Shown here: positions 3-43,107 of the stretch, piece after piece
Numbering within the stretch: position 1 is the stretch's first letter
Layout of the letters: every line of letters starts with the position of its first letter
Assembly: GCA_049999805.1 (NCBI GenBank)
Contig: JBNGIO010006141.1
Span: 213,057 to 260,636 of the forward strand
Origin: Folioceros fuciformis
Taxonomy: Eukaryota
DNA length: 47,580 bases
Direction: 5' to 3'
Program-made: the position numbers and the translations under genes
Notes under the pieces: generated by a model
The model's database searches: none
Seen by the model: only the letters and a program-made list of their open reading frames with translations
What the model was told of the DNA's origin: nothing

Positions 3-644
3 AGCGCTTTGATTGCTGGATATGCCCGGCAAGGGAACTGTGAGATGAGCTATCGAAGTTTTGAGGACATGGTACGAGCAGGCATGATGCCTGATGGGGC
101 TACATTTCTTTCACTACTGTCTGCATGCAGTCATGCGGGCCTGGTGGACAAAGGCCTGGAGTACTTCGAATCCATGAGCAGAGATCACGGTGTGAGGCCA
201 GCCAGTGAGCATTACGCTTGCTTGGTGGACCTGGTGGGCCGAGGAGGACTGTTGAGCAAGGCGGAGAGTGTCATTATGGACATGCCCATGGAACCTAGCC
301 TGTCCTTGTGGATGTCGTTGCTTGGAGCCTGCCGGAATCATGGGAATATTATGCTGGGGAGACGGGCCTTTGATAGGGCAGTGGCGATAGCGCCGACACA
401 TGGTTCAGCATATTTGCTGATGTCAAACATGTATGCTCATGCTGGCTTGTGGTCGTGCGTGCTGGAAATTGAAGAGTTGCGGCAGCGAGCAGGTGCGTGG
501 AGGAAGCTTGGGCAGAGCTGGCTGGAGCACAATCAGGAGGTCCATTCATTTGTGGCAGGAGGAGAGGATGGCACACAAGAAAGCAGTGATGTACACAGAC
601 TGGTGGACGAGCTGACATGGAAGCTGAAGCAAGGTCAACTGTGA
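3..644 (+). CDS. PLS-class PPR protein, 3' part (P2-L2-S2-E1-E2 plus PG-box-like tail, no DYW catalytic core); 5' truncated by window edge
   Basis: Translation shows TFLSLLSACSHAGLV, HYACLVDLVGRGG, LWMSLLGACRNHG, AYLLMSNMY, GQSWLE..VHSFVAG, then a stop with no HxE/CxxC. Confidence 0.9.
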   Translation, partial: SALIAGYARQGNCEMSYRSFEDMVRAGMMPDGATFLSLLSACSHAGLVDKGLEYFESMSRDHGVRPASEHYACLVDLVGRGGLLSKAESVIMDMPMEPSLSLWMSLLGACRNHGNIMLGRRAFDRAVAIAPTHGSAYLLMSNMYAHAGLWSCVLEIEELRQRAGAWRKLGQSWLEHNQEVHSFVAGGEDGTQESSDVHRLVDELTWKLKQGQL

Positions 645-1669: not shown

Positions 1670-4600
1670 ATGGCCATACTGTGGCAACCGGATCCCTTGT
1701 GGACCCAACAAGGTGGTGAGTGTGCAAGGCATCTACGAGAAGCTCCCGATCACCTCACCTTATGGAGCCAACGCCTGGGAAACATTCAATCCTGCAGGTA
1801 CAGCAGTGCACAGAACCCAGCACCTCCACTAGCTCCCAGAAAATTTGTGGGTGGGGAAGGATTTTCCAGACATAGTCCTCGCCAGGAGCAGGAGCGCTTG
1901 TGGCATCAATTTTTTCTGGATCCTACCATGTGGTGGGACAACAGGCGAGACAAGAAGAGCTCCCGTTCCCCTGACTTCCGGCGGAAGGGGCCAAGCGGCG
2001 AGGTCCTGTGGTTAAACAGCATGCTCAAGCCAGCTTGGGTGGATGAGCAGCTTCTTTTGTTGGATGTGAGGATGAGTCATGGTACCTATCCTTCCAAGTC
2101 GAGCTCTTCGGATAAGCCTGATCTTTTTCAGCGTGAAGGCTCGAGCGTAGGCGTGGTGAGGCCTGTAACTGTGAGCATGTTATGTCAGCAGGGGAAGCTT
2201 ACTGAGGCAGTTGGAGCCCTGGAAGCTCTGGCGCAGACAAGCTCTGGCATTTCTCAGTCTCTCCTATACACTGTGCTGAAAATATGTACAGCTGAGAAGG
2301 ATTTGGTTGCGGGGCGACGTGTGCATGATCTCATTGTCAAACTTGGGTACGAGACGAATGCATACTTGGGAAACCACATCTTGCGCATGTATGCATGTGG
2401 AGGTAGGCTACAGGAGGCCGTGGATGTGTTGAAAAGGGTAGGCAAGCCAGATGCGTTCATGTGGTTTTCCATTATCTCCGCGCATGCTAAACATGGGAAA
2501 CCCAATGAGGCCATACAACTGTACCATGAGATGCGTGGGTCAGGTGTGAAGGCGGATGCACATGTCTTTGCTGCCGCCCTTCAAGCATGTGCATTTGCCA
2601 GCGACCTGGAATGTGGCAGAAAAGTGCACTGTGATGTGTTGCACAGTGGCATTCCACCTAATGTGTTTGTTGGCACGTCCCTGGTGGACATGTATGCAAA
2701 ATGTGGTGTACTGGAAGAGGCACGCACGGTTTTTGACAGCTTGGTCACAAAAGATGTGGTGACATGGACGTCCCTGCTTGCTGGGTATGCAAATCATGGC
2801 TTCGGCCACGAGGCGCTTGTTCTGTATGGACAAATGCAGACGGAGGGCGTGATTGTGGCTGACCAATTTACTTTTGCTTGCCTTCTCAAGGCCTGTGCCA
2901 GTGCTGGTGCCGTGCAGAAGGGCAGGGAGCTGCACTCACAGATTGTGAAAGGAGGACATCTGAATGACATTGTGTTGGGCAACTGCCTGGTGGACATGTA
3001 TGCAAAATGCGGTGAAGTGAAAGATGCCCGCCTGGTTTTTGACAGATTGGCCAAAAAGGATGTGGTGACATGGACAACCCTGATTGCTGGCTATGCACAG
3101 CAGGGGCTCGGCCAGGAGGCGCTCGTTCTGTACGAACAAATGGAGGCAGATGGCCTGATTTTGGCTAACCATGTTACTTTTGCTTCCCTTCTGAAGGCCT
3201 GTGCAAGCACTGGCTCTCTACACAAGGGAAGGCACTTGCACTCGCAGATTGTTGAAAGAGGCCATCTGAACAACATAGTGGTGGGCAATTGCCTGGTAGA
3301 CATGTACGCAAAATGTGGTGCACTTAAAGATGCACGCCAGGTTTTTGACACCTTGCCTAGAAAGGATGTGGTGACATGGACAGCCCTGCTTGGTGGGTAT
3401 GTCCAACAAGGATTTGGCCAAGAGGCGCTTGTCCTGTACGGACACATGGAGCAAGAGGTCTTAATTTTGGCTAACGATGCCACTTTTGCTTGCCTTCTGA
3501 AGGCCTGTGCAAGCACCGGTTCCTTACAGAGGGGCAGGCAGCTGCACTCACAAATCGTGGACAGAGGACTGTTGCATAACGTAATGGTTGCCACCAGCTT
3601 GGTGGACATGTATGCTAAATGTGGCGAGATGGAAGATGCACGCAGGGTTTTTGATGGTCTGGACACGAAGAATGTAGTAACATGGACGGCCCTCATAGCG
3701 GGGTATGTAAAACGTGGCGAACTGGAATGTGCACGCCTGGTTTTTGACAGCTTGGCCGCAAAGGATACAGTAATCTGGAATACCCTCATTGCTGGGTATA
3801 GTGATCGAGGGCTGGGTCAAGAGGCGCTTCGTCTGTATGGACAAATGCAACAGGAGGGGTTGATTGTTGCGGACGATGTTACCTTAGCTTGCCTTGTGAA
3901 GGCCTGTGCAAGTGCTGGTGCCTTACAGAAGGGCAGACAGCTGCACTCCCAGATCGTGGAAAGAGGACAACTAGACAACAAGCTCGTGGGAACCTGCCTG
4001 GTGGACATGTATGCAAAGTGTGGCGAGCTGGAAGATGCGCGCAGGGTTTTTGAGACCCTGGCCTCGAAGGATGTGGTGACCTGGACGGCCCTGATTGGCG
4101 GGTTTGGTGCGTGTGATCAAGGTCAGGATGCAGTGGCTTGTTTTGAGGAGATGTTAGTCGCTGGTATTCAGCCTGACGATGCTACTTTGACTTGCCTTCT
4201 AGCAGCGTGCAGTCATGAGGGACTGGTGAATGAGGGCCGTAAATACTTTGATTCCATGCTCCCTCGGCATGGCATCAAACCTACTATTGAGCACTACAAC
4301 TGCATGATTGATCTTCTTGGGCGTGCAGGCCATTTGGATGAGGCAGAGAACATGTTGTTATCATGTGAGAGCCGAAACAATGTCGTGGGGTTGACGGCTT
4401 TGCTGAATGCCTGCAAAAGTCACGGGGATATTGAGAGGGCGACACGGTGTTTTGAGAGTCTGGTTAGTGTGGAGCCTCAGACTGCATCCTGGTATGTGCT
4501 CATGGCTAATGCGTATGCGGATGGAGGAAGGTGGAGCGATGTAGACAGGATCGAAGCGCAGAGAAGGGTGGCAAGAGCTAATAAGAAACCTGCAGTGGCG

Positions 4601-4987
4601 GGTATCGAGGTGAAGGAGCAGGTACACACATTTGTGGTAGGAGGGAGCACGGATGACCTGTCTCTCGAGGTAGATAGCACGAATGCACGGCTGAAGGAGG
4701 AAGGGGGACATGTACCACAGACGAAGTTGGTGTTTAAGCCATTGTCCGAGAAGGAAAAGGAAGACGCGCTTTGTGGGCACGCAGAGAAGCTAGCTCTGGC
4801 GTTTGGCCTGTTGAACACTCCGGTCGGGACGCCGCTGGTGGTGACGAAGAATCTGCGCATGTGCGGTGACTGCCACAGTTCCACAGAGATCATGTCAAGG
4901 GTTGAGAAAAGAGTCATCGTTGTGAGGGATGGGTACCGAGTGCATCGGTTCACAGCTGGTTGTTGCAGTTGTAAGGGTCGACCGTGA
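1670..4987 (+). CDS. PLS-class PPR-DYW:KP (GRP-type) RNA editing factor with N-terminal OSB-like PDF motif
   Basis: 1105-aa intronless ORF. Leader MAILWQPDPLWTQ; WWDNR..PDF..LWL motif (1898-2053); PLS repeats; KKPAVAGIEV; CGHAEKLA; CGDCH; ends CCSCKGRP. Confidence 0.95.
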   Translation: MAILWQPDPLWTQQGGECARHLREAPDHLTLWSQRLGNIQSCRYSSAQNPAPPLAPRKFVGGEGFSRHSPRQEQERLWHQFFLDPTMWWDNRRDKKSSRSPDFRRKGPSGEVLWLNSMLKPAWVDEQLLLLDVRMSHGTYPSKSSSSDKPDLFQREGSSVGVVRPVTVSMLCQQGKLTEAVGALEALAQTSSGISQSLLYTVLKICTAEKDLVAGRRVHDLIVKLGYETNAYLGNHILRMYACGGRLQEAVDVLKRVGKPDAFMWFSIISAHAKHGKPNEAIQLYHEMRGSGVKADAHVFAAALQACAFASDLECGRKVHCDVLHSGIPPNVFVGTSLVDMYAKCGVLEEARTVFDSLVTKDVVTWTSLLAGYANHGFGHEALVLYGQMQTEGVIVADQFTFACLLKACASAGAVQKGRELHSQIVKGGHLNDIVLGNCLVDMYAKCGEVKDARLVFDRLAKKDVVTWTTLIAGYAQQGLGQEALVLYEQMEADGLILANHVTFASLLKACASTGSLHKGRHLHSQIVERGHLNNIVVGNCLVDMYAKCGALKDARQVFDTLPRKDVVTWTALLGGYVQQGFGQEALVLYGHMEQEVLILANDATFACLLKACASTGSLQRGRQLHSQIVDRGLLHNVMVATSLVDMYAKCGEMEDARRVFDGLDTKNVVTWTALIAGYVKRGELECARLVFDSLAAKDTVIWNTLIAGYSDRGLGQEALRLYGQMQQEGLIVADDVTLACLVKACASAGALQKGRQLHSQIVERGQLDNKLVGTCLVDMYAKCGELEDARRVFETLASKDVVTWTALIGGFGACDQGQDAVACFEEMLVAGIQPDDATLTCLLAACSHEGLVNEGRKYFDSMLPRHGIKPTIEHYNCMIDLLGRAGHLDEAENMLLSCESRNNVVGLTALLNACKSHGDIERATRCFESLVSVEPQTASWYVLMANAYADGGRWSDVDRIEAQRRVARANKKPAVAGIEVKEQVHTFVVGGSTDDLSLEVDSTNARLKEEGGHVPQTKLVFKPLSEKEKEDALCGHAEKLALAFGLLNTPVGTPLVVTKNLRMCGDCHSSTEIMSRVEKRVIVVRDGYRVHRFTAGCCSCKGRP

Positions 4988-5525: not shown

Positions 5526-6213
5526 ACGCGCTTTAACTTGCAGCCGCACATGTTTCTAACAAATTTTATTTTTATCTTAATTACTTAAACGGTTTTCTTT
5601 CTCTTCCTAGTTGTGGCCTTGTTTCGGGACTTACACAATTTGTAGTCATGAGCTTCACGGAGATTCGACAGTCTGCGTCTCCTGTTGCCAATTTTCCAGA
5701 TCACACTTTGTGATGGCATTTTCCAGTTTCAACTGGTTCCCGCATTGTCCTGCTGCCGTCTTTGCTGGCACGACTCTGCCATGGGATATATCAGATTCAG
5801 GCAGACCCTACATTCCAGGGCGCCCCCAGAACTTCACCTGCTTGAGCATCATCTGGGCTTCGAGCGGGGTGCCTGCTCTGCACCTTGCCCACTGTCCCAC
5901 GCCCTCGCAAAATCCAATCACCGCTTCACTAGCCTCGTCACTCACAATCGCTTTCTTCAGTGTGGACAAGTGTGTACGTCGTCTACAGACGGCGACGCCG
6001 GCCTTTCAATCATCCATTGGAGTTGGCATTGTCGTTGGAGTATAACGTCTAGCAGGCTCATCCGACCAGCGTGCTCGAGCGAGCCATGGCTGCCCTTGAC
6101 TACTATGCCAAGAGTCTCTTGCATTGGTGGGAAGCGCAGGAAGTGACCCCTTGTTGTTGTACAAGCACGCAACCAAGTCGGGTGCGGTTCAAGTGGATGG
6201 TTCCTGTTTGGAA

Positions 6214-9200
6214 ATGCCTCGTCCAGCGACGCTGGTGCTGCTCGCTGCCAAGAGGGGCAGTGGTGCAAGCACGCAACTCCAAAGTGTTGCGCTCACACCC
6301 TTTAAGCAAAGTGGATGCCTTCTCTACCTTGCTCGGTTTGCAGGTTATCACCTTGGCTCAGTGACGCCTGAAACTGTGAGCCAGCTATGTCGTGACGGCC
6401 ATCTCGCTCAGGCCGTGGAGGCTTTGGAACTCGTGGCGCACGCACACCCTTGCGTTTCCAAGTCCCTCTTCTGCACGATCCTCAAGAGATGTGCGGTCAG
6501 CAAGGATCTTGTGCTGGGTAGCCGCGTCCATGCTCTTACAGTGAAACACGGGTACAGGTCAGACACTTTCCTGTGTAACCACATCCTGCGGACGTATGCT
6601 TCTCATGGCAGGTTGCAGCACATGATGCATGTATTTGAAGGCCTGGCCCAACCGGATGCCTTGGCCTGGTCTGCCCTTATTTCTTCCCATGTTAAGCATC
6701 GACCAGACCAGCAGGCCATTCAACTGTACCAGCGAATGCGGATGACGTCCCGTGTGAAGCCCGATGGGCATCTAATTGTGGCTGCCCTTCAGGCATGCGC
6801 AAGGGCCTCCTACTTGGAAACTGGCCAGAAGGTGCATGCTGACTTGCTGGCCAGCGGGGTGGAGCCTGGTCTCCTTGTTTCAAGTTGCTTGGTTGCCATG
6901 TATGCTAAGTGTGGCAGCTTGGAGAATGCCCAGGCCGTCTTTGATGCTCTTGCTGAAAAGAACGTGGTGACATGGACAGCCATGATAGCAGGATATGCCC
7001 AGCGGGGCAAGGGCCACCAAGCCCTTCCCCACTACGCTGCAATGGAAGAAGAGGGCTTGGCCATACCCGATTCCATCACCTTCGTCTGCCTCCTGCAGGC
7101 ATGTGCAAGTGTGGGCACCTCAGCTTTGGGCACAGGGAAGCACCTGCATGCTCAAGTCAGACGAGCAGGACATGAGGGTGATGTGTCTGTAGCCAACAGT
7201 TTGGTAAACATGTATGCAAAGCGTGGCAGCTTGGAGGATGCTCACACACCATTTGACGGACTTGGTCACAAAGATGTTGTGACGTGGACTGCAATGATTG
7301 CAGGATACTCCCAGCACAGCATGGGGCAGAAGACACTTGCTCTATACAGTGCCATGCAAGATGACGGCCTGGCTGTACCCAATTCTGTGACGTTTGTGTG
7401 CCTGCTGCAGGCATGTACAAGTGTGGCCACCCCAGCTTTGGAGAAGGGAAAGAATCTTCAGGCGCAAATTAAAGCAGGTGGCCATGAAGTTGATGTGTTT
7501 GTAGCCAACAGCTTGGTGAACATGTATGCAAAATGTGGTAGCTTGGAAGATGCTCAGTTAGCTTTCGACAGAATTGATCAAAAAACGGTTGTGACGTGGA
7601 CTGCCATTATAGCAGGATATTCCCGACAGGGTAGGGGTGAGGAAGCCCTTCGTGTGTTCAGTTCTATGGAAGAAGGAGGCGTTGCAGTACCGGATTCCGT
7701 GACTTTTGTGTGCCTGGTCCAGGCATGTGCGACTGTGGGTACCCCTGCCTTAGACAAGGGGAAGCAGCTTCATGCTCTGATTAGGGAGCAAGGATATGAA
7801 GCTGATGTGTTCATAGCCAACAGTTTGGTGTCCATGTATGCAAAGTATGGCAGCTTGGAATATGCACAGACTGTGTTTGACGGACTTGTCTACAGAGATG
7901 TGGCGACTTGGACTGCCCTGATAGCAGGATATTCCCAGCAGGGCATGTGGCAGGAAGCCCTTCGTCTTTACAGTGCTATGAGAGAAGACGGTTTGACTAT
8001 ACCTGATTGTGTGACATCTGTGTGCCTCCTCCAGGCATGTGCAAGTGTAGGTACCCCAGCTTTGGAGAACGGCAGGGACCTTCACACACAGATTACAGAG
8101 GGAGGGTATGAAGCTGCTGCACCTGTAGCTAGCATGCTAGTGAACATGTATTCAAAGTGCGGAAGCCTGGACGATGTTCAGAGGGTGTTTAATGGACTTC
8201 GTGAAAAGGATGTGGTGGCATGGAATGCCATGCTAGCTGGGTATTCCCAGCAGTGGATGGGGCAGGAAGCTCTTCGCCTGTACAGTGTTATGCAAGAGGA
8301 AGGCATGGTTATACCCAATTCCTTAACATTTGTGTGCCTCCTAAAGGCATGTGCAAATGTGGCTGCTCTGCGTATGGGAAGGCAACTGCATGCACAGATT
8401 GCAGAGCAAGGGCTTGAAGCTGACGCGTTTGTAGCCGGCAGTTTGATTAACATGTATGCCAAGTCTGGGAGCATGGTGGATGCGCAGCAGGTCTTCGATG
8501 TCTTACTGGAAAGGGATTTCGTGGTCTGGAATGGACGTGTTGCAGGCTATGCTTGTCAAGGTGACAGTGAAGTGGTGTTTGATTTGTTGCAAAGAATGAT
8601 ACAGGACGGAGTCCGACCGGACAGCATCACGTTCATCAGTATACTAACGATGTGTAGTCATGTGGGTCTAGTAAAGAAGGGATGGGAGTACTTTGATGCT
8701 ATGAGCAGGCACTACTACATACCTCCGACAGACGATCACTACGCATTTATGGTGGATCTCCTGGGTCGTGCTGAACATCTAGATGAGGCATTAGCTTTAG
8801 TCAAGTCAAATCTGGGTCAACCTAATGCCTCAGTGTGGCACAGTCTGCTGCGTGGGTGTCGGAAGTGGAATACTGTAGAGGTTGGACGCCATACGTTCAG
8901 TGAAGCAGTGAGGCTAGACAGGAATGATGCTGCAGCATGTATCATGATGTGGAACATCTATACCAGTGCCCAGATGTGGGAGCAAGGGCACAAGATACAA
9001 GTGACCGGGGAATGGGTCAAGGCATGGAAGCAACCAGGCCAGAGCTGGTGGACAGACGAGGATGGGCTGGTGCATAGTTTCTTGGTTGGGGATGAGAACC
9101 ATCCCCACGCTCATCACCATCCACAGACTGGGGAGACAGGAAGTGTGCATCCGACTGCTAGATTAGTCGCAACAGGACAGATGGCTGCAGATAACAGCAA

Positions 9201-11631
9201 AGTGGATTTTATCAGCAATGAGAGCACTATTCGGCCATGGCATAAATCCCCTTTATCATTCATGAAGAACATGCCGGTGGTGGCAGGGAAACAAATTAGG
9301 CATGGGCTACACGTCATAGGTATGTACGAGGCTGGAAAGCGCTGGCTAGCCAAATTGGACGACACCACAATAACGTTCCCCACTTTCTGCTTCGCTCACA
9401 CACATCCCATCTGGACATCCTGCTCTCGTCCGGCCAGGATGGATGTTGGGTTAACGGGTATTGTAGGAGGAGGAGCTGGTCATTGCGTAGCGCACAACCA
9501 ATTCGGGAGGGGGTGTAGTGGCTTTACGAGAAGAAAGCTCATCCGTTTGAGAGTCTCCTCAGGTGAGGGTTGTCACCGGGAGAAGATGCTGTCTAGGCAA
9601 CCTGCACTTTGGTCGGATAATATCAGGCAAAGTATGCAAAACCGTCGGTCCAACCAGCAGCACTGGGACAGGGACAGAGACAAGGACAAGGACATGGGAG
9701 GTGGCAGGAAGCTTGCTGCTGTGAATCTGGAAACTATGCCTGGTCGTGTTGGCGTTGGTTTTGACTCTCCTAGGCCAGCTGGAGGTTACGACAGTGGCAT
9801 AACAGCTGAAACCGTGAGGAAGCTGTGTGATGAGGGGCATCTCACTCAGGCTGTTGAAGCTTTGGAAAGTTTGTCGAAGACAGCTCATCGCGTCACCAAG
9901 TCTCTCCTTCACGCTGTCTTAAAGAAGTGTGTGGCAAAGAAGGATGTTGCTCTGGGCAGGCGTGTCCATGTTTTTACCCTGAAAACGGGGTACCAGTCGG
10001 ATGCTTTCCTGGGGTTTCACATTCTGCAAATGTATGCCTCCCTTGGTAGGTTGAAAGACGCTATGGATGTGTTTGAAGCCGCTGTTAAACCAGATGCCTA
10101 CATGTGGTCAGCTATAATTTCCGCGTATGTGAGACATGGACGGGACAGCCAAGCCATACAATTGTATCATCGGATGAGAAGGTCTGGTGTGAAGCCAGAT
10201 GGCCATGTCTTTGTGGCAGCACTTCAGGCTTGTGCCAGGGGGGCAGACCTGAAATCTGGTCAGCAGGTGCATGCCCATGTGTTGGCCAGTGCCAGTGCCA
10301 CCGATGCTGCCAAGCGTCCCGATTTGTTTGTCTACAATAGCTTGGTGGACATGTATGCCAAGTGTGGAAGTTTGGACGACGCTCAGACAGTGTTTGATGC
10401 ACTCCGTGTGAAAAGTGTTGTGACCTGGACTGCCATGATAGCAGGATATGCCCAGCAGGGGAGGGGTGAGAAAGCCCTTCACCTCCACAGTGCGATGCTA
10501 GATGAAGGCATAGTTGTACCAAACTCCGTCACATTTGTGTGTCTCCTGCAGGCATGTGCAATTGTTGGCAGGTCAGCGCTGGAGAAGGGGAAGCAGCTTC
10601 ATGCTCAGATTAGAGAAGGGGGGCTCGAAGCTGATGTGTTTTTGGCCAGCAGTTTGGTGAACATGTATGCCAAGTGTGGCAGCTTGGAAGATGCTCAGCG
10701 AGTGTTTGACAGCGTTGCTAAAAAAGATGTGGTGATGTGGACTGCAATGATAGCAGGGTACTCCCAGCAGGGGATGGGGCAGGAAGCACTTCGTCTCTAC
10801 AGTGGGATGCAAGAAGAAGGCATGGCTGTACCCAATCCCGTGACGTTTGTGTGCCTCCTCCAGGCATGTGCAAATGTCGGAGCTCTGGATTTGGGAAGGC
10901 AGCTTCATGCCCAGATGCTAGAACAAAAGATTCCAGAGGATGTTTTTGTGGCTGGCAGCTTGATTAACATGTATGGGAAGTGTGGGACCATGGTTGATGC
11001 TCAGCAGGTGTTTGATGCGTTGCCCCCGCCTGAAAGAAACACCATCATTTGGAACGCACTAATTGCTGGCTATGCCTGTCAAGGGCAGAGTGAGGTAGTG
11101 TTCGACTTGGTCCACAGATTGAGACAGTATGGCATACGCCCGAACGGCATTACATTCCTTAGTGTTCTGACGGTATGCAGCCATTCGGGACTGGTGACGG
11201 AGGGGTGGCAATACTTCGAGGCAATGTGCAGGGACTACCAGGGCGTCATCACCCCTACCCAAAGCCACTACACATGCATGGTGGATCTCCTAGGCCGAGC
11301 AGGACAACTTGATGAGGCACTAACTTTGGTAAGATCAATGCCTATGGCGCCTAATGCTGCAGTTTGGCGCACCCTTTTAGGTGCTTGTCGAAAGTGGGGC
11401 AACGTAGAGGTGGGATGCAACGCTTTTAGTGAGGCCCTGAAGCTAGAGGTGGCAGACTCTGCAGCGTATGTGCTGATGTCCAACATATATACGGGTGCTC
11501 AGATGTGGGAGCAGGCCCAGGAAATGCAGGCGATGAGGAAAAGAATGAGGGTATGGAAGCAACCAGGTCAGAGTTGGTGGACGGACGTGGACGGATTGGT
11601 GCACAGTTTTTTGGTTGGGGATGAGACGTGA
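6214..11631 (+). CDS. Continuous ORF containing two tandem PLS-class PPR E-type units with WW-type PG box (unit 1 ~6214-9110, unit 2 ~9439-11631), no DYW catalytic core
   Basis: Both halves have full PLS arrays ending E1-E2-WKQPGQSWWTD..GLVHSFLVGDE. First in-frame ATG is at 6214 (the ORF track starts at a TTG at 6124). Unit 2 has its own candidate ATG at 9439 (MDVGLTG) and a long non-PPR leader. Could be one gene or two. Confidence 0.8.
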   Translation: MPRPATLVLLAAKRGSGASTQLQSVALTPFKQSGCLLYLARFAGYHLGSVTPETVSQLCRDGHLAQAVEALELVAHAHPCVSKSLFCTILKRCAVSKDLVLGSRVHALTVKHGYRSDTFLCNHILRTYASHGRLQHMMHVFEGLAQPDALAWSALISSHVKHRPDQQAIQLYQRMRMTSRVKPDGHLIVAALQACARASYLETGQKVHADLLASGVEPGLLVSSCLVAMYAKCGSLENAQAVFDALAEKNVVTWTAMIAGYAQRGKGHQALPHYAAMEEEGLAIPDSITFVCLLQACASVGTSALGTGKHLHAQVRRAGHEGDVSVANSLVNMYAKRGSLEDAHTPFDGLGHKDVVTWTAMIAGYSQHSMGQKTLALYSAMQDDGLAVPNSVTFVCLLQACTSVATPALEKGKNLQAQIKAGGHEVDVFVANSLVNMYAKCGSLEDAQLAFDRIDQKTVVTWTAIIAGYSRQGRGEEALRVFSSMEEGGVAVPDSVTFVCLVQACATVGTPALDKGKQLHALIREQGYEADVFIANSLVSMYAKYGSLEYAQTVFDGLVYRDVATWTALIAGYSQQGMWQEALRLYSAMREDGLTIPDCVTSVCLLQACASVGTPALENGRDLHTQITEGGYEAAAPVASMLVNMYSKCGSLDDVQRVFNGLREKDVVAWNAMLAGYSQQWMGQEALRLYSVMQEEGMVIPNSLTFVCLLKACANVAALRMGRQLHAQIAEQGLEADAFVAGSLINMYAKSGSMVDAQQVFDVLLERDFVVWNGRVAGYACQGDSEVVFDLLQRMIQDGVRPDSITFISILTMCSHVGLVKKGWEYFDAMSRHYYIPPTDDHYAFMVDLLGRAEHLDEALALVKSNLGQPNASVWHSLLRGCRKWNTVEVGRHTFSEAVRLDRNDAAACIMMWNIYTSAQMWEQGHKIQVTGEWVKAWKQPGQSWWTDEDGLVHSFLVGDENHPHAHHHPQTGETGSVHPTARLVATGQMAADNSKVDFISNESTIRPWHKSPLSFMKNMPVVAGKQIRHGLHVIGMYEAGKRWLAKLDDTTITFPTFCFAHTHPIWTSCSRPARMDVGLTGIVGGGAGHCVAHNQFGRGCSGFTRRKLIRLRVSSGEGCHREKMLSRQPALWSDNIRQSMQNRRSNQQHWDRDRDKDKDMGGGRKLAAVNLETMPGRVGVGFDSPRPAGGYDSGITAETVRKLCDEGHLTQAVEALESLSKTAHRVTKSLLHAVLKKCVAKKDVALGRRVHVFTLKTGYQSDAFLGFHILQMYASLGRLKDAMDVFEAAVKPDAYMWSAIISAYVRHGRDSQAIQLYHRMRRSGVKPDGHVFVAALQACARGADLKSGQQVHAHVLASASATDAAKRPDLFVYNSLVDMYAKCGSLDDAQTVFDALRVKSVVTWTAMIAGYAQQGRGEKALHLHSAMLDEGIVVPNSVTFVCLLQACAIVGRSALEKGKQLHAQIREGGLEADVFLASSLVNMYAKCGSLEDAQRVFDSVAKKDVVMWTAMIAGYSQQGMGQEALRLYSGMQEEGMAVPNPVTFVCLLQACANVGALDLGRQLHAQMLEQKIPEDVFVAGSLINMYGKCGTMVDAQQVFDALPPPERNTIIWNALIAGYACQGQSEVVFDLVHRLRQYGIRPNGITFLSVLTVCSHSGLVTEGWQYFEAMCRDYQGVITPTQSHYTCMVDLLGRAGQLDEALTLVRSMPMAPNAAVWRTLLGACRKWGNVEVGCNAFSEALKLEVADSAAYVLMSNIYTGAQMWEQAQEMQAMRKRMRVWKQPGQSWWTDVDGLVHSFLVGDET

Positions 11632-13973: not shown

Positions 13974-16589
13974 TTACGGTCGACCTTTACAAGTGCAACA
14001 GCCATTAGCGAATCTGTGCACACGGTATCCATCCCTCACGACAATGTCTCTTCGTTCAAGCCTTGACATGATCTCGGTAGAACAATGGCAGTCACTGCAC
14101 ATGCGGAGATTCTTCGTTACCACCAGAGGCGAGCCACCGGGCGTGTTCAAGAGACCAAACGCCAGAGCTAGTTTCTCAGCATGACCGCAAAGCACATGCT
14201 CCTTTTCTTTCTCACCCAGTCCATTCAACACCAACTTCGTGTGAGGTACGTGGCCTCCCTCCTGCTTCAGCTGAGCATTCGTGCTGTCTACCTTGAGCGC
14301 AATATCCTCTCTTCTTTCCCCTACCAGAAATGTATGTAGCTGCTTATTCACCTCAATGCTTGCCACTGCAGGTTGTTTGTTAGCTCCTGCTCGCTTTCTT
14401 CGTGTTTCAACCCTGTCTACATCGCTCCACCTACCTGCATCTGCGTAGGCATTGGCCATGAGCACATATGCGGGTGCCTGCTGGGGCTCTAGTATAACCA
14501 GACTCTCAAAACACCTGGTGGCCCTCTCTATATCCCCATGACTTTTGCAGGCATTCAGCAAAGACGTCAGCCCCACAACATTGCTCTGGCACTCACATGA
14601 GAGTAGCACCTTCTCTGCCTCATCTAAATGGCCCGCCCGCCCGAGAAGATCAATCATGCAATTGTAATGCTCAATAGTTGGATTGATACCGTGCTGCTCA
14701 GCCATGGAATCAAAGAGTTTGCGACCCTCATCCACTAGTCCGTCATGACTGCACGCTACTAGAAGACATGTAAAAGTAGCGTCATCAGGCCGAATGCCCG
14801 CAAGTAGCATCTCCTCAAAACAAGCTAGTGCCCTGTGGCCTTCGTCACAAGTACCATATGCGGATATCAGGGCTGTCCAAGTCACCTGATTTTTCGTTGT
14901 TAGGCTGTTGAAGACCCTCTGCGCATCGCTCAGTTTGCCACATTTTGCATACATGTCCACGAGGCAGGTACCTACCAGAATGTTATCCAGCAGTCCTCTT
15001 TGCACGATCTGTGAGTGCAGTTGCCTGGCCTTTTGTAGGGCACCAGTGCTTGCACAAGCCTTCAGAAGGCAAGCCAGAGTCACATCGCTAGCTACAAGCA
15101 GACCCTCCTGCTCCATTTGCCCATACAGACAAAGCGCCTCTGGGCCGAGCCCTTGCTGTGCGTACCCAGCTATGAGAGCATTCCATGTCACCACATCCTT
15201 TGTGGCCAAGCTGTCAAAGACTTGGCGTGCATCTTCCAGTTCGCCACATTTCGCATACATATTCACCAAGCAGTTGCCTAACACAATGTTATCTGGCTGT
15301 CCTCGTTGCACAATCTGTGAGTGCAGCTGCCTGCCCTCCGGCAATGCACCAGCGTTGGCACAGGCATTCAGGAGACACACGAAAGTAACATCGTCAGCAA
15401 AAACTAGACCCTCTCGCTCCATCTGCCCGTACAGAACAAGCGCCTCTTGACCCAGCCCATGCTGGGCATAACCAGCCAACAGTGCATTCCATGTTACCAC
15501 ATCCTTCACGACCAATCTGTCAAAGGCCCGGCGTGCATCTCCCAGTTCACCACATTTTGCATACATGTTGACCACTGAGTTACCAACAAACAAGTCAGCA
15601 GAAATGCCGCTTTGCAATACATCGCTGTGCACTTTTCTGCCGGATCCCAAGTCAGCAGCAAGTGCACAAGCTTGCAGGGCAGCTGCAAAGACGTGGGCAT
15701 CCGCCTTCACTCCAGACCTACGCATCTCATCGTACAGTTGTATGGCCTCGTAAGGATTCCCATGCTTGGCATATGCGGAGATTATGGAAAACCACATGAA
15801 GGCATTTGGTTTGCGTACCCTGGTGAACACATCCATGGCGTCCTGCAGCCTACCTACACATGCATACATGCGCAAGATATGGTTCCCCAAGTATGCGTCC
15901 GTCTGGTACCCAAGTTTAACAGTAAGATTATGAACTCGTCTTCCCGCCACCAGATCCTTCTTAGCTATACACAGTTTCAGCACGGAGTAGAACAGAGACT
16001 GAGAAATAGCAGAGTCGGTGCGCGCCAGATATTCCAGCGCTTCAACGGCCTGAGAAAGCTTCCCCTGCTGACATAACATTCTCACAGCTCCAGCCGTTAC
16101 GAAGTCCAATTCCGATCCTTCACGCCTGGCAGGAGCAACCTCATCAGTAGAGCTGGACTTTGAAGCAGAGGAACCATCAACCATGTGCGTACTCAAGGAG
16201 ATGGGCTGCTCATCAACCCAAGTTGGCTCGAACCTGCTGTTGATCTTGAGGGCCCCGCCGCCGGACCCTCTATGCCGGAAATCAGGCGAACGGGACCTCT
16301 TCTTATCTCGTGCGCTGTCCCGCAACACGGTAGGATTCCTGAAAAATTGTTGCCACACCAGCTCCTCCTCCTGGTCTTTCCCCTGCCCCTGCACCTGCTC
16401 CTTTGGACGAGCATAGCTGGAGAACTGTTCGCCAGCAACAGATTTTTTGGGAAGTAGAAGGGCTGCATTCCGGACACTGCTGTACCTCGCGGCTTGCTTG
16501 TTTCCCAATGGATGGCTCCCTCCTAGCATGCCTGAACACTCAGCATTTTTGGAAGTCCATAACTGGTCCGGTGGCCACAGTGTGGCCAT
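13974..16589 (-). CDS. PLS-class PPR-DYW:KP (GRP-type) RNA editing factor with degenerate N-terminal PDF motif
   Basis: 871 aa. MATLWPPDQLWT leader; VWQQFFRNPTVLRDSARDKKRSRSPDF; PLS array; KQPAVASIEV; CGHAEKLA; CSDCH; ends CCTCKGRP. Confidence 0.94.
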   Translation of the reverse strand: MATLWPPDQLWTSKNAECSGMLGGSHPLGNKQAARYSSVRNAALLLPKKSVAGEQFSSYARPKEQVQGQGKDQEEELVWQQFFRNPTVLRDSARDKKRSRSPDFRHRGSGGGALKINSRFEPTWVDEQPISLSTHMVDGSSASKSSSTDEVAPARREGSELDFVTAGAVRMLCQQGKLSQAVEALEYLARTDSAISQSLFYSVLKLCIAKKDLVAGRRVHNLTVKLGYQTDAYLGNHILRMYACVGRLQDAMDVFTRVRKPNAFMWFSIISAYAKHGNPYEAIQLYDEMRRSGVKADAHVFAAALQACALAADLGSGRKVHSDVLQSGISADLFVGNSVVNMYAKCGELGDARRAFDRLVVKDVVTWNALLAGYAQHGLGQEALVLYGQMEREGLVFADDVTFVCLLNACANAGALPEGRQLHSQIVQRGQPDNIVLGNCLVNMYAKCGELEDARQVFDSLATKDVVTWNALIAGYAQQGLGPEALCLYGQMEQEGLLVASDVTLACLLKACASTGALQKARQLHSQIVQRGLLDNILVGTCLVDMYAKCGKLSDAQRVFNSLTTKNQVTWTALISAYGTCDEGHRALACFEEMLLAGIRPDDATFTCLLVACSHDGLVDEGRKLFDSMAEQHGINPTIEHYNCMIDLLGRAGHLDEAEKVLLSCECQSNVVGLTSLLNACKSHGDIERATRCFESLVILEPQQAPAYVLMANAYADAGRWSDVDRVETRRKRAGANKQPAVASIEVNKQLHTFLVGERREDIALKVDSTNAQLKQEGGHVPHTKLVLNGLGEKEKEHVLCGHAEKLALAFGLLNTPGGSPLVVTKNLRMCSDCHCSTEIMSRLERRDIVVRDGYRVHRFANGCCTCKGRP

Positions 16590-16876
16590 ATTAGGTGCAG
16601 GCTCAGCTCTCTTTCAGATGAGGCGCACGTCAAACGGTTAAAGCAGGAGGCTTCAACTTGTAACCCAAGATCCCGTTATTGTGAATAAAGCCGAGGCGAT
16701 GTCCTATATCTTGGTCGTGTGAAATGACCAGGAATTGCTGGACATGGAATCAAATCGGCTGGTGAGGCAAGTTCACTTGCTTCGATGCCCAGGTTCGCTC
16801 TTATGCCAGCAACAAAAGCAGCGACAAGAGCACGAGCAGGAGTAGAAGCAAGAGGAGGAGGAGGAGGAGGGTGGTG

Positions 16877-19800
16877 ATGAAGGCAGGAGCCTGGCTACCT
16901 GACAGTGCACAGGGAACTGTATCCTTCAACAGAAATTACACAGCACCAGCAGCAGCCGCTGCCCAAACATTGGTTGTGGGCCGGTGTCCGGAGGGAGCAG
17001 GCAACGTGCAAGTTAGTGAGAGTGCCGAGGGTATTTCTTACCAGCACCGGGGGCTGTGCCAACCGGCGGTGAAGGATGCTTGGCAGCTGCAAGGGCCTGT
17101 TGGAACCAGCACCTGCAAGTTGACCCACCACCAGGCTGCTGGCTTGCAGGTCGGGGGAGAGCTTAGCAAGGATGTGGAGAGTTTGGAGCTGCTGGTGCAG
17201 CAGGGATTCCTCCCTCCTACCTCCCTTCTCTACTCCTTGCTCAAGAGGTGCATTGCACGCAAAGATTTGGTTCATGGGAAGCGTGTGCACGCTCTCGCTG
17301 TGGCAAGTGGAAATGGGACGAACCCTTTTGTGGGCAACCACATCATTCGTATGTATTCTTGTCATGGCATGTTGGTGGAAGCAATGCAGGTATTCACTGA
17401 ACTGGATGTTCAAAACACCTTTGCGTGGGCTTCCATTATCATCGCCCATGCGGATCATGGGCAGCCCTCTCAGGCTATCAAGCTGTACCGACAGATGCGA
17501 CTCTCTTGCTTGGAGCCCAATCAGCATGTATTTGTGGCAGCCATTAAAGCGTGTGCTAATGCAGGGGACTTAGTTGCCGGCAAGGACATACATTCTCATA
17601 TTGTGCTGGCTGCGTATGAGCGCCAGCCCTTGATTGCCAACTCCCTCGTCAACATGTACTCAAAATGTGGGAGCTTGGCAGATGCCCGCCAAGTATTCGA
17701 CAAATCGGTGATGAGAGACGTGGTGACGTGGAACACCATCATCGCAGCGTATGCTCACCATGGACATAGCCAAGAGGCCCTACGTCTGTACAAACAGATG
17801 CAGCTAGTCGGCACGACTCCACCCAATCACTTCACGTATGCCAGTGTCTTGAAAGCATGTGCCAGCATTGGTGCTGTGCATGAGGGAAGGCAGCTCCATC
17901 TGCTACTTCGGGATAGTGGCATGGAATGTGACGTCTTTGTGGGAAGCTGCCTGGTAGATATGTATGCAAAATGCGGAAGCTTGGAAGATGCGCGCACGGT
18001 CTTTGACAAGTTGCCCAAAAGAAATGTCGTGACGTGGAATGCCTTGATTGCAGGCTATGCACACCACGGTCTCGCTGAAGAAGCCTTCAATCTCTTTGCA
18101 CTTATGCAGCAGGAGGGTAGCATTCCATTGAATCGAGGCAGTCTTGCATCCCTTGCGAAAGCATGTGCGAGTGCCAGGGCCTTGCACCAAGGAAGGTGGC
18201 TCCACGCACTCATTCAGAAGGAAGGGCTAGAATCTGACTTGGTTGTTGCCAACTGCCTGTTGGATATGTATGCAAAGTGCGGTAGCTTAGAGGATGCACG
18301 TGCTGTGTTTGAAGAACTGCCTACCAGAGATGTGATAGCTTGGAATACAATGATAACGGGATATTCTCAGAACGATCTCGGTGAAGAAGCTCTACATCTC
18401 TATGCTCGAATGCAGTGCGAGGTCTGTACCCCGCCGAATCATTTTACGTTTGCTGGCCTCCTCAAAGCATGTGCTAGTACCAGAAATCTGCATCGAGGAA
18501 TGCAGATGCATGCACTCATCCAAGAGAGAGGTTTGGAAGGCGACGTCATTGTTGGCAGCAGCCTAGTGGACATGTACGCAAAATGTGGGGGCCTGGAGCT
18601 GGCTCGCCAAGTTTTTGACAGAATGCCTGCCAGAAATGTGGTGACATGGACTTCCATGATAGCAGGCTATGCCCAGCATGGGCTTGGACAGGAAGCCCTG
18701 CATGTCTTTGCAAGTATGCAACAGCAGGACGTAAGGCTATGCGATCGGGTCACGCTGTTGTGCCTTCTGAAGGCCTGCACATGTGTTGAAGACTTGCATC
18801 AGGGAGTGCAAGTGCATATGCTGATTCAGGATAGTGGACTGGAAACTGATTTGGTTGTCGGGAGCTCCCTAGTGGACATGTACGCAAAATGTGGGAGCTT
18901 GAATGACGCACGAAGAGTGTTTGACAAGCTGAGCACGAGAGATGCAGTGGCATGGACTGCCATGATTGCTGGATATGCCCGCCAGGGACATGGTCTAGAG
19001 GCCCTGACTCTTTATGCAACCATGCAAGACGAGGGCTTGACCCCAGCCAATCATGCGACTTGTGCTGCTCTCCTCATGGCATGTGGCAGCTTGACAGCTT
19101 TGAGTCATGGGAAGAAGCTTCATTCCCTGATTCAGGAAAGAGGCCTGGAAACTGATGTCGCTGTGGGCAACTGTCTGGTGGATATGTACGTGAAATGCGG
19201 GAGCTTAATGGATGCTCGCAGCGTGTTTGACAAATTGTCCAGTAAAGATCTGCTGGCGTGGAATGCGTTGATTGCAGGATATTGTCAGCAAGGGTTGGGT
19301 CAGGAAGCCCTGGATCTTCATGAGCAAATGCGACATGAGTGCAAACACCTGGTGGTGGCCAATCATGTGACGTATGTGTGGTTGTTGAAAGCGTGTGCAA
19401 GTGTTGGTGCCTTGCATCAGGGAAGGCAGCTTCACCGCCTGATGGCCCAAGCGCAAGGACTGGAAACGGAGGTGGTTGTTGGCAATTGTCTAGTGGACAT
19501 GTACGCCAGATGTGGCTGCTTAGAGGATGCTCGAAAGGTGTTGGACAGGTTGCCCTATAGAGATGTGGTGGCCTGGAATGCGTTGCTGAATGGTTATGCC
19601 AAACACAGTGAGGGGCACATGGCGTTGCAGTGTTTTGAGGAGATGTTGGGGCAAGGAGTGAAACCGGACGGGACTTCCTTCTGTTCTCTTCTGGTTGCAT
19701 GCAGTCATGAGGGCCTGATCTCCGAGGGCCAGCATTATTTCACCGAGATGGTGGATGTCCATGGCATTGAGCCCACTGATTACCATTACAACTGCATGGT

Positions 19801-20479
19801 TGATCTCCTAGGCCGTTCAGGCTGCCTGGATGAAGCGGAACAGATGTTGCACAGTGTAGCAACGGCGAATCAGGCAGTGGGCCTGACATCCTTGCTAAGT
19901 GCCTGCAAGTTCCATGGAGACGTTGAGCGTGGAAGGATGTGTTTTGAGCGTCTTACAGCACTGTGCCCCCAGGATGCGGGTGCGTATGTACTCATGGGAA
20001 ATATCTACGCAAGTGCCGGCAGGTGGGACGATGTAGAGAGGATGGAAAGGCTAAGAAAAAGGGCCGGTGCTTTGAAGAAGCCGGCGAAGGCTTGCATTGA
20101 AGTGAAGGGCAAGGTGCATGAGTTCACCGTCGGGGATATGGTACCCAGTGTTGTGTCCAAGTCCAGGAGCACGAACTCGAGGATACAGGAGGAAGGAGGC
20201 CATGTGCCACACAGGGATCTGGTGCTGAGGTCAGTATCCGACAGCATGAAGGAAGATGCTCTTTGTGGACATGCCGAGAAACTGGCATTGGCCTATGGTC
20301 TTCTACACACTCCAGATGGGACATCGCTGATGGTCACAAAGAATCTTCGAATGTGCAGTGACTGCCACAGTAGCACCAAAGTCCTGTCCCAACTTGAGAA
20401 GCGACAGATCGTAGTGAGAGACGCACATCGGGTGCACCGATTTCTGGATGGCCATTGTTCATGCAGGGATCGGTGTTGA
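16877..20479 (+). CDS. PLS-class PPR-DYW:KP RNA editing factor (DRH-like terminus, DRC), no PDF motif
   Basis: Long PLS array; KKPAKACIEV; CGHAEKLA; CSDCH; ends HCSCRDRC. First ATG at 16877 (the ORF track starts at a GTG at 16871). Confidence 0.94.
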   Translation: MKAGAWLPDSAQGTVSFNRNYTAPAAAAAQTLVVGRCPEGAGNVQVSESAEGISYQHRGLCQPAVKDAWQLQGPVGTSTCKLTHHQAAGLQVGGELSKDVESLELLVQQGFLPPTSLLYSLLKRCIARKDLVHGKRVHALAVASGNGTNPFVGNHIIRMYSCHGMLVEAMQVFTELDVQNTFAWASIIIAHADHGQPSQAIKLYRQMRLSCLEPNQHVFVAAIKACANAGDLVAGKDIHSHIVLAAYERQPLIANSLVNMYSKCGSLADARQVFDKSVMRDVVTWNTIIAAYAHHGHSQEALRLYKQMQLVGTTPPNHFTYASVLKACASIGAVHEGRQLHLLLRDSGMECDVFVGSCLVDMYAKCGSLEDARTVFDKLPKRNVVTWNALIAGYAHHGLAEEAFNLFALMQQEGSIPLNRGSLASLAKACASARALHQGRWLHALIQKEGLESDLVVANCLLDMYAKCGSLEDARAVFEELPTRDVIAWNTMITGYSQNDLGEEALHLYARMQCEVCTPPNHFTFAGLLKACASTRNLHRGMQMHALIQERGLEGDVIVGSSLVDMYAKCGGLELARQVFDRMPARNVVTWTSMIAGYAQHGLGQEALHVFASMQQQDVRLCDRVTLLCLLKACTCVEDLHQGVQVHMLIQDSGLETDLVVGSSLVDMYAKCGSLNDARRVFDKLSTRDAVAWTAMIAGYARQGHGLEALTLYATMQDEGLTPANHATCAALLMACGSLTALSHGKKLHSLIQERGLETDVAVGNCLVDMYVKCGSLMDARSVFDKLSSKDLLAWNALIAGYCQQGLGQEALDLHEQMRHECKHLVVANHVTYVWLLKACASVGALHQGRQLHRLMAQAQGLETEVVVGNCLVDMYARCGCLEDARKVLDRLPYRDVVAWNALLNGYAKHSEGHMALQCFEEMLGQGVKPDGTSFCSLLVACSHEGLISEGQHYFTEMVDVHGIEPTDYHYNCMVDLLGRSGCLDEAEQMLHSVATANQAVGLTSLLSACKFHGDVERGRMCFERLTALCPQDAGAYVLMGNIYASAGRWDDVERMERLRKRAGALKKPAKACIEVKGKVHEFTVGDMVPSVVSKSRSTNSRIQEEGGHVPHRDLVLRSVSDSMKEDALCGHAEKLALAYGLLHTPDGTSLMVTKNLRMCSDCHSSTKVLSQLEKRQIVVRDAHRVHRFLDGHCSCRDRC

Positions 20480-20570: not shown

Positions 20571-20756
20571 CTATCGCACAATTCTTTTCGGCATTGGAAT
20601 TGCTGGGCTTCTTACACTGCTGCACCTGGAGGCCTGGTTGTTTGGAAGGGCGTCACTCTCGGAGTTGAGGTGAGCACCAGCAGCTCCTCATACAACCCCT
20701 ATTCCCAGACCAATTTCTTGGGTCCACAGAAGGTCCGGTTGCCATACTGTGGCCAT
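20571..20756 (-). pseudogene. Orphan 5' fragment of the GRP-type PPR family (leader only)
   Basis: Translates MATVWQPDLLWTQEIGLGIGVV*GAAGAHLNSESDALPNNQASRCSSVRSPAIPMPKRIVR*. Homologous to the family leader, with an internal stop at 20688-20690. Confidence 0.8.
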
Positions 20757-24700: not shown

Positions 24701-25021
24701 GGATTCTTTATGCCGGAAGTCAGGCGATCGAGATCTCTTCTTATCTCGCCTGTTGTCCCACCACATGGTAGGATCCAGGAAAAATTGTTGCCACAAGTGC
24801 TCCAGCTCCTGCCGACGACCATCGCTGGAAAACCCGTTCCCGCACACAGATGTTAGCGGAAGTGGGATTGCCGGGCTCCTTACACTGTTGGACCTGGAGG
24901 GCTGGCCGTTCGGCTGAGGTGAACTCCGTGAGGCGAGGTGGGAGGGAGTTCCTCGTGGAATCCCTGTGCACACACCAATCTGTTGAGGCCACAACGGGTC
25001 CGAGTGCCACAATGTGGCCAT
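21728..25021 (-). CDS. PLS-class PPR-DYW:KP (GRP-type) RNA editing factor with N-terminal PDF motif
   Basis: Family-conserved start MATLWHSDPLW at 25021 (frame open to 25099); PDF motif 24644-24796; KKPAVATIEV; CGHAEKLA; CSDCH; ends CCSCKGRP. Confidence 0.95.
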   Translation of the reverse strand: MATLWHSDPLWPQQIGVCTGIPRGTPSHLASRSSPQPNGQPSRSNSVRSPAIPLPLTSVCGNGFSSDGRRQELEHLWQQFFLDPTMWWDNRRDKKRSRSPDFRHKESGEVLWLNNLLKPAWVDEQLLSLDMKMARGASPDNAEPGRLEGSAPSVVTAGLVTMLCQQGKISEAVGALESLAQIETAISQFLFYTVLKLCTAKKDLVLGRRVHHLIVKLGYDSKAYMGNHILRMYASGGRLSEAMDVFTKVGKPDAFMWSSIISAYSKHGKPKQGLQLYREMRRSGVKADAHVYVAALQACASANDLESGREVHGHVEQSGIPTNLFVGNCLVDMYAKCGKLEDARQVFDSLATKDVVTWNALISGYAKRGELKDARRVFDSMKTKNVVSWNALIAGYSEQGLGHEALVVYGQMEQEGLILADHVTFSCLLKACASTGALQKGRQLHSLIVERGLLDTAVLGNSLVDMYAKCGELTDARQIFDSLTTKTVVTWNALIAGYAQQGLGQDALFLYETMEQEGLIVADHVTFACLLKACACTGALQKGRQLHSLIVERGAMDSVVVGTCLVHMYAKCGELEDARQVFNSLSTKNLVTWNALIGGYTEQGRGHEALAVYVQMEEGTLISADHVTFSCVLKACASTGALQKGRQLHSLILEKGLLHDVVLCTCLVDMYAKCGELQQAREVFDSMAAKDVVTWNALIAGYTHQGLGHEALALYGRMEQEGLIFTNHVTFGCLLKACGSTGALQKGRQLHSQIVERGLLDDVVLGNCLVDMYAKCGELEEARLVFDSMKAKNVVTWNALISGYGSSDAGHKALACFDEMLVAGIRPDEATFTCLLVACSHEGLVTEGRKHFDSMAEQHGIKPGIEHYTCMVDLLGRAGQLDEAENVLLSCEGQTDVVALTSLLNACKSHRDVERARWCFESIVRLDPQWASAYVLMANAYADAGRWSDVDRIETLRMAAGANKKPAVATIEVNMEVHRFVVGERREEIALKLESTNARLKQEGGHVPHTQLVLKPLSEKEKEEALCGHAEKLALAFGLLNTASGTPLVVTKNLRMCSDCHSSTEIMSRLEQRDIVVRDGYRVHLFADGCCSCKGRP

Positions 25022-26870: not shown

Positions 26871-27056
26871 TAGGGTGGCCTCTTCGCTCTACTCATTGTA
26901 CTGAACATCAAAAAATGGGATGAAGGGTTTAGGCTCAAAAGAAGTCTAGTCTACACAACCAACAAACCAATAAGCGGTGGGTACAAACTCTAAAAATTTA
27001 TAATAACAAAAAAAGAAAAGAGATGTGTACATATTAACTGCAAAGCCTACACCCTA

Positions 27057-27590: not shown

Positions 27591-27605
27591 CTAGTTTGGT
27601 TATTA

Positions 27606-27705
27606 NNNNNNNNNNNNNNNNNNNNNNNNNNNNNNNNNNNNNNNNNNNNNNNNNNNNNNNNNNNNNNNNNNNNNNNNNNNNNNNNNNNNNNNNNNNNNNN
27701 NNNNN
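27606..27705. other. Assembly gap (100 N)
   Basis: N run. Confidence 0.99.
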
Positions 27706-43007: not shown

Positions 43008-43107
43008 NNNNNNNNNNNNNNNNNNNNNNNNNNNNNNNNNNNNNNNNNNNNNNNNNNNNNNNNNNNNNNNNNNNNNNNNNNNNNNNNNNNNNNNNNNNNN
43101 NNNNNNN
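43008..43107. other. Assembly gap (100 N)
   Basis: N run. Confidence 0.99.

Follow-up and report, generated by a model that had tools for sequence, protein, structure and literature searches.

The DNA considered here, called the window throughout, is a stretch of 47,580 nucleotides from Folioceros fuciformis (GenBank assembly GCA_049999805.1, contig JBNGIO010006141.1, positions 213,057 to 260,636). It is probably nuclear and contains five tandem genes for pentatricopeptide repeat (PPR) proteins, in each of which a block of about 52 amino acids related to the PDF motif of the OSB proteins, a family of organellar single-stranded DNA (ssDNA) binding proteins, lies between an N-terminal leader and the first PPR motif. 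PPR proteins of the PLS class are the specificity factors of RNA editing in plant organelles and provide the scaffold on which programmable editors, for C-to-U as well as for U-to-C, are built; the N-terminus is usually drawn as a bare transit peptide.

PDF blocks and their host genes

Gene A (1670-4987, forward strand) is one open reading frame (ORF) of 1105 residues that reads leader, PDF block, linker, PLS array, E motifs and a DYW domain of the KP type (DYW:KP), with KKPAVAGIEV and HAEKLA, and ends in CKGRP. Its block, at 1898-2053 (+), has exactly the translation given in a preliminary description of this DNA and lies within a hidden Markov model (HMM) match at 1880-2062 (domain E 1e-30). 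The other four genes are on the reverse strand. Gene C (13974-16589, 871 residues, CKGRP end) has the architecture of gene A, with a decaying block at 16206-16358 (HMM match 16194-16376, E 2e-24); gene E (21728-25021) has its block at 24644-24796 (match 24635-24814, E 4e-31); gene F (37322-39817, CKGRW end) at 39434-39589 (match 39425-39607, E 8e-27); and gene G (40200-42995) at 42615-42767 (match 42606-42785, E 8e-32). Gene starts were set at the methionine common to all five paralogs, which in genes E, F and G is at 25021, 39817 and 42995; the ORFs of genes E and F extend further, to 25099 and 40042, and a run of N (43008-43107) lies just upstream of gene G.

A six-frame regular expression scan and a six-frame HMM scan of the window both gave five full PDF copies and one partial copy. 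Each full copy, 51 to 52 residues long and including the PDF tripeptide in all five cases, sits inside a single unbroken ORF that also codes for the PPR, E and DYW domains, so that the recurrence and the PDF-PLS-E-DYW:KP order put forward in the preliminary description are real in five intact genes, and all of the positions it listed fall within HMM matches. The partial copy, which had been placed at about 45013-45068, was found as half a PDF at 44997-45086 (-), covering profile positions 1-28 of 60 (E 5e-11), in a frameshifted pseudogene at 43435-45086 (-), where tblastn pieces of a PPR-E-DYW remnant lie in three reading frames with in-frame stops. By either scan, the other PPR genes of the window have no PDF copy upstream. 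One further candidate, at 23308-23385, matched with 3 bits (E 0.026) and was treated as noise. A useful comparator is ORF D (16871-20479, +, 1202 residues), which is of the PLS-E-DYW:KP type without a PDF and has KKPAKACIEV, HAEKLA and a CRDRC end. This end is closer to the DRH variant of DYW:KP proteins than to the GRP variant, and ORF D stands amid the PDF-bearing GRP-type paralogs.

In a Pfam scan gene A matched PPR (1.8e-101), E_motif (1.6e-11) and DYW_deaminase (2.7e-31), and gene E gave similar results; in neither was there an SSB domain (PF00436) at E ≤ 1 or any match over the PDF block. Pfam has no model for the PDF, and domain surveys would therefore miss it. The zinc site in the translations reads HAEKLA followed by CGDCH or CSDCH, as in DYW editors of the PLS class, and in all five genes the position of the PG box is occupied by KKPAVA(G/S/T)(I/V)EV. 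The C-terminal ends are GRP in genes A, C, E and G, and GRW in gene F. According to the accessible text of PMC9478123, which cites Gerke et al. 2020 and Gutmann et al. 2020 on DYW:KP as the basis of the designer proteins KP2 and KP3, such domains have KP instead of the PG box, carry alanine within HxE and end in a triplet that is not DYW, and those of hornworts comprise DRH and GRP variants. The KP box, the HAE site and the GRP or GRW ends thus identify the five PDF-bearing genes, by these sequence features, as DYW:KP genes of the GRP variant. Their U-to-C activity is putative; the same text gives this activity as shown only for designer KP proteins. They share with the described hornwort GRP proteins the PLS array, the E motifs, the KP for PG exchange, the HAE site and the C-terminal GRP; the difference is that those descriptions, as far as the source was available, cover the C-terminal domains and PLS motifs and do not mention an N-terminal PDF.

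The leader in front of the PDF is about 76 residues long (75 to 77) and poorly conserved, and a linker of about 37 residues follows the block. All five leaders begin with MA(I/T/A)(L/V)(W/R)xxD(P/Q)L, the remainder evolving almost neutrally, and there are acidic residues within the first 40 positions, something that plain presequences for organelles do not usually have.

Homology, constraint and predicted fold of the block

A profile built from the five window copies only was searched against 1.84 billion representative proteins. It gave 644 matches at E ≤ 1e-3 and 184 at E ≤ 1e-10, which excludes chance similarity, and 16 of the matches reached E ≤ 1e-30. They include P0035, annotated as 'protein OSB1, mitochondrial-like' (Populus nigra, E 7.1e-23), P0055, 'organellar single-stranded DNA binding protein 3' (Euphorbia peplus, E 1.9e-19), and P0067, 'Protein OSB3, chloroplastic/mitochondrial' (Anthurium, E 1.3e-16), while a mixed profile recovers many more named OSB1, OSB2 and OSB3 proteins. 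Because a profile made from the window alone finds named OSB1 and OSB3 proteins, the block qualifies as a true OSB-type PDF motif. On this homology, which is solid, it is a genuine PDF domain of the OSB type, and the identification first made by eye is borne out by profile search at E values from 7e-23 to 1e-16.

The window proteins are nevertheless built differently from OSB proteins. The OSB family was the subject of work in 2006, cited in PMC6963530, PMC4166229 and PMC6451138, and the accessible literature describes the PDF as a green-plant module of about 50 residues that follows the OB fold of the OSBs. Using an OB-domain profile iterated within the match set, we found an OSB-type OB domain in 78 of the best 150 matches, where it precedes the first PDF in 77 of the 78; the Pfam SSB model was above its cut-off in three of ten scanned matches and sub-threshold in three more. 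The window proteins have the same motif of about 50 residues, the P-D-F tripeptide, the WWDNR and LWL...P.WV signatures and the modular tandem use in common with OSBs, but their PDF is N-terminal and single, is followed by PLS, E and DYW, and comes without an OB or SSB domain, whereas that of OSBs is C-terminal to the OB fold. Without an OB domain they fall outside the OSB family and have the motif alone in common with it.

An alignment of 25 sequences (the five window blocks, 13 further PPR-borne PDFs and seven PDFs of OSB-like proteins) has W8, D20, D32, F33, L43, W53 and V54 invariant, and F12, P15, W18, R22, K25, P31, K36 and P51 near-invariant. Residues that are invariant in OSB PDFs are retained in four of the five window copies. 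The motif contains a conserved basic loop, NRRDKKxSRSPDFRRKG, and is rich in aromatic residues, with eight W, F or Y in the 52-residue block. It is also used in tandem, there being one to 13 PDFs in OSB-like proteins and one to three in front of PLS arrays. The largest array seen is that of the OSB-like protein P0002 (Kingdonia uniflora, 1160 residues), which has 13 PDF motifs, 12 in tandem before a weak SSB match (residues 935-1023) and one after it. PDF motifs were also seen in P0050 (Coptis chinensis, 1526 residues), whose annotation is a kinesin motor, and in P0032 (Striga hermonthica, 1063 residues), whose annotation is 'interactor of constitutive active ROPs 2'; fused gene models or additional combinations of domains may account for these two. 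Green-algal proteins with several PDFs rank high with the mixed profile (P0012 from Sanguina aurantia, P0243 from Volvox africanus and P0259 from Ulva, labelled 'Ulvmu1'), in agreement with a review whose accessible part states that PDF motifs reach back to chlorophytes.

The block is under purifying selection. By pooled Nei-Gojobori estimates over the five window paralogs, the ratio of nonsynonymous to synonymous substitution rates (dN/dS) is 0.67 in the leader, 0.28 in the block, 0.73 in the linker, 0.31 in the first 130 residues of the PPR tract and 0.12 in the DYW domain; when copy C is left out the values are 0.78, 0.16, 0.63, 0.30 and 0.12, respectively. The claim that the block is far better conserved than its flanks is thereby upheld (0.28 against 0.67 and 0.73), and a ratio near 1 across the paralogs is not seen. 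Copy C differs from the rest. Its block has LR for WW and LKIN for LWLN, and the loss of W18, W19 and R22, taken with pairwise dN/dS values of 0.38-0.59 against the other copies, indicates that it appears to be under relaxed constraint.

Using AlphaFold2 with the 25-sequence alignment, the block of gene A is predicted to fold at a mean predicted local distance difference test (pLDDT) score of 92.5, with a helix at 2-13, strands at 18-20, 33-35 and about 42-43, and a second helix at 53-60. The five single-domain models scored 92.5, 92.0, 75.1, 74.7 and 72.7. By the best of these models the PDF would be a small autonomous alpha/beta unit, and the leader and linker on either side of it, which are below pLDDT 50 in a longer model of gene A described further on, look disordered or flexible. 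A solved look-alike was sought in three ways. The profile had no matches at E ≤ 1 among the sequences of the Protein Data Bank (PDB), Foldseek returned none at E ≤ 1e-3, and a wide VIA-align search had a best Z of 2.8. In the ESM Atlas the best score, 0.80 to phage gp49 clusters, is at chance level by the tool's own figures. The predicted structure therefore matched no known fold in these searches, which is not proof of a new one.

Distribution of the PDF-PLS fusion

The samples that describe the distribution are ranked match lists rather than censuses, and some of the N-termini in them are cut. Of the best 150 matches to the window-only profile, 13 are PPR proteins, and these have one to three PDFs at the N-terminal side. 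With the mixed profile, 24 of the best 120 matches have PPR Pfam domains and two of these also have a DYW domain; from their KAPGCSWIEV or KTPGCSWIEV box, HSERLA site and GDY or GDYW end, both read as PG-type. Behind N-terminal PDFs, the PLS array may end with E motifs only, with DYW:PG or with DYW:KP. By the names given in the sources, the fusion occurs in mosses (five species of Sphagnum, and Ceratodon purpureus), in the liverwort Calypogeia fissa, in the lycophytes Selaginella moellendorffii and Diphasiastrum complanatum (many), and in the ferns Ceratopteris richardii, Adiantum capillus-veneris and Pteridium aquilinum. In Sphagnum, P0457, P0446 and P0434 have a complete PDF behind a presequence-like leader, and only about 10 residues separate the end of this PDF from the first PPR-like motif. 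The three Pteridium aquilinum transcriptome ORFs P0114, P0120 and P0148 have PDF and PPR in one frame, and P0214, a transcript-style record, has three PDFs and a PPR array.

A second sample consists of 120 PLS relatives of full-length gene A, of which 33 have a PDF (26 of them full length). Typed by the HSE or HAE active site, the PG box and the end triplet, and not by a KP-specific HMM, the 33 carriers divide into 12 of PG-type, two of KP-type and 19 without a DYW domain. Seen from the other side, about 17 of the relatives are of KP-type and only two of these have a PDF; at least 10 HAE-type KP proteins are without it, as are a few unclear KP-like ones. In P0336, which is of KP-type and has a full leader but no PDF, truncation is not the reason for the absence. 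P0134, P0316 and P0359 are unnamed KP-type relatives with a PDF, and P0360 is of PG-type. Among the 15 gymnosperm PLS proteins in this sample (six from Cryptomeria and nine labelled 'Gb_', which we take to be Ginkgo) none has a PDF. The preliminary description had presented the fusion as one with DYW:KP, or U-to-C-type, factors and had named a cofactor for reverse editing among its possible roles. A survey by DYW subtype sustains the co-occurrence of PDF and PPR, in mosses, a liverwort, lycophytes and ferns, but supports neither a tie to KP nor a link to reverse editing: 31 carriers are PG-type or DYW-less, and KP proteins, ORF D included, occur that do without the motif.

A FastTree of 410 PDF instances over 57 columns is weakly resolved. 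On it the PPR-linked PDFs require 10 changes of label, against about 46 in shuffles, with none of 500 shuffles as low, while the well-supported branches force at least two changes. The tree is compatible with a few old fusions, a single origin being neither shown nor excluded by these sequences.

Several other features of the window were recorded. An ORF of 1835 residues at 6124-11631 (+) reads through two successive PLS-E units, neither with a PDF. Both units stop at a PG-box-like WKQPGQSWWTD...FLVGDE and lack a full DYW domain; the ORF may represent two genes in tandem with an open spacer between them. At 25445-26885 (-) a PPR-E-DYW pseudogene fragment lies next to a run of N, at 20577-20756 (-) there is a leader-like remnant of 60 residues with 42% identity to residues 1-60 of gene G, and at 3-644 (+) a partial PPR ORF is cut by the start of the window. 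The regions 26000-32000 and 32273-32809 include a stretch with a GC content of 0.38-0.41, against about 0.51 in the genes, that contains two assembly gaps (runs of N at 27606-27705 and 28682-29081), and a short tandem repeat that gives repeated peptide units in ORFs of both strands. In bins over the PDF block, summed contig depth is about 3000-3400, against about 10-13 in flanking unique sequence, a hint of many similar blocks that was not used as a copy number.

Possible function of the fused motif

The reading that we favour, albeit with slightly less than even confidence, is that the PDF clamps single-stranded nucleic acid, specifically RNA, without sequence preference and on the 5' side of the PPR footprint. 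Binding of PLS proteins to RNA is parallel, with the N-terminal repeats on its 5' part and the DYW domain at the edited base, and an N-terminal PDF would consequently meet the RNA just 5' of that footprint. We propose that the PDF would be retained after maturation, as a small fold of its own between flexible linkers, would clamp single-stranded nucleic acid regardless of its sequence, and by this contact would raise affinity or dwell time while leaving specificity unchanged, RNA being taken as a likelier ligand than ssDNA for a PLS-borne PDF. The tandem PDF arrays, the conserved basic loop, the aromatic richness and the flexible flanks together suggest a bead-like binder of single strands.

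A number of observations weigh against such a clamp. Nucleic-acid binding by the PPR-borne PDF is putative and comes from homology with OSB proteins, and of these OSB1 and OSB2 favour ssDNA over double-stranded DNA or RNA, according to the accessible part of PMC4166229, which speaks against RNA as the ligand. The predicted fold is not uniform, three of the five single-domain models scoring only about 73-75. Moreover, in a 330-residue model of gene A built with the five paralogs only, the PPR tract from about residue 162 is predicted at pLDDT 79-96, while leader, block and linker are at 25-44, the block itself at 27-44 and drawn as helices. Since the block is unfolded with five paralogs and folded with 25 sequences, the fold rests on the family alignment. 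Given its conserved MAxLWxPDPLW start and its acidic residues, the leader is a putative transit peptide with a putative cleavage point. A look for RNA runs that contain the window genes found none: of four sequencing runs, all of them contig sets, the two that contain the stretch extend at single-copy depth into the intergenic flank and look like DNA. For these genes the case for the block being in the mRNA consists of the unbroken ORF and the codon-level constraint only. The PDF is also dispensable for the enzyme class, given ORF D and at least 10 KP relatives without it, and the decay of copy C points in the same direction.

A different ligand is assumed if the PDF keeps an OSB-like preference for ssDNA and parks the editor on single-stranded organelle DNA, as a tether to nucleoids, transcription bubbles, R-loops or replication intermediates that would couple editing to transcription. 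The accessible parts of PMC6963530, PMC6451138 and PMC4166229 credit the PDF motif of AtOSB1 with ssDNA binding, for which it is said to be sufficient or responsible, and this, together with the ssDNA preference of OSB1 and OSB2 and the retention of OSB-invariant residues in four of the five window copies, is what such a tether would lead one to expect. The spacing in Sphagnum, where only about 10 residues separate the PDF from the first PPR, is at least equally consistent with an extended RNA-binding surface, and these genomes also have working PLS editors that lack a PDF, so we regard a DNA tether as unlikely, if by no means far-fetched.

It is less probable again that the PDF binds no nucleic acid and serves for docking to other proteins, either by self-association or by contact with an OSB, another PDF-bearing protein or a helper. 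The conserved aromatics, eight in 52 residues, could form an interface, and AtOSB2 is reported as a tetramer in the accessible text of PMC6963530, but the published role of the PDF, as far as the sources could be consulted, is nucleic-acid binding, and conservation of the basic loop also argues for that role. More doubtful still is that the PDF was fused once, early in PLS evolution, and is now, in this hornwort-type family, a dispensable remnant or a part of the import leader. Here one may point to the decay of copy C, to the pseudogene with half a block, to the many relatives without a PDF and to the clustering of PPR-linked PDFs on the tree (10 changes against about 46 in shuffles). Against this, dN/dS among genes A, E, F and G is 0.16 in the block, near the 0.12 of the DYW domain and far below the 0.78 of the leader, the motif is retained from mosses to ferns, and an autonomous fold is confidently predicted. 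That the PDF is an adaptation specific to KP proteins, recruiting a cofactor or otherwise serving U-to-C editing, is barely credible even though all five intact GRP-type KP genes of the window and the relatives P0134, P0316 and P0359 have one, as most carriers are PG-type or DYW-less (12 and 19), only two of about 17 KP-type relatives have a PDF, ORF D has none, and the fusion is found in mosses and a liverwort, outside the hornworts, lycophytes and ferns listed for DYW:KP and U-to-C editing in the accessible text of PMC9478123.

A bolder proposal is also compatible with these data. The PDF could be a built-in, cis-acting equivalent of the MORF/RIP helpers in the editors of seedless plants, acquired by an ancestral PLS editor, kept in bryophytes, lycophytes and ferns, where it would strengthen and stabilise RNA binding, and lost in seed plants as MORFs arose. 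We offer this as a speculation of low probability. The likeness to MORF/RIP would be one of function, in that either would serve as an accessory that reinforces the hold of PLS proteins on RNA; there is no relation in sequence or fold, and PDF-PLS proteins were seen here in seedless plants only, MORF helpers being confined to seed plants according to the accessible part of PMC13386178. Other PPR proteins also combine a PPR tract with a second small domain. A 2022 review on Physcomitrium lists RRM, as in PPR4, and LAGLIDADG, SMR, NYN, CBS and SAP as additional domains (PMC9459714), and in its accessible text the PDF is absent from that list; the PDF is found on PLS-class editors, whereas RRM, SMR and LAGLIDADG are found on the P-class.

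The PDF-PLS architecture is real and widespread in seedless plants, and apparently undescribed. No account of a PDF-PPR fusion was found in the literature searched, most subscription papers being outside its scope, and in a 2026 kingdom-wide survey of editing factors the terms 'OSB' and 'single-stranded' do not occur; the novelty suggested in the preliminary description stands provisionally on that footing. The fusion shows the PDF motif to be a mobile module that is not confined to OSB proteins, and its distribution corrects the tempting idea that it explains reverse editing. It adds an unrecognised part to the editosome of seedless plants and offers a direct comparison of editing with and without a PDF. 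If the motif does act as a built-in helper, designer PPR editors, whether for C-to-U or for U-to-C, could be improved by adding it.

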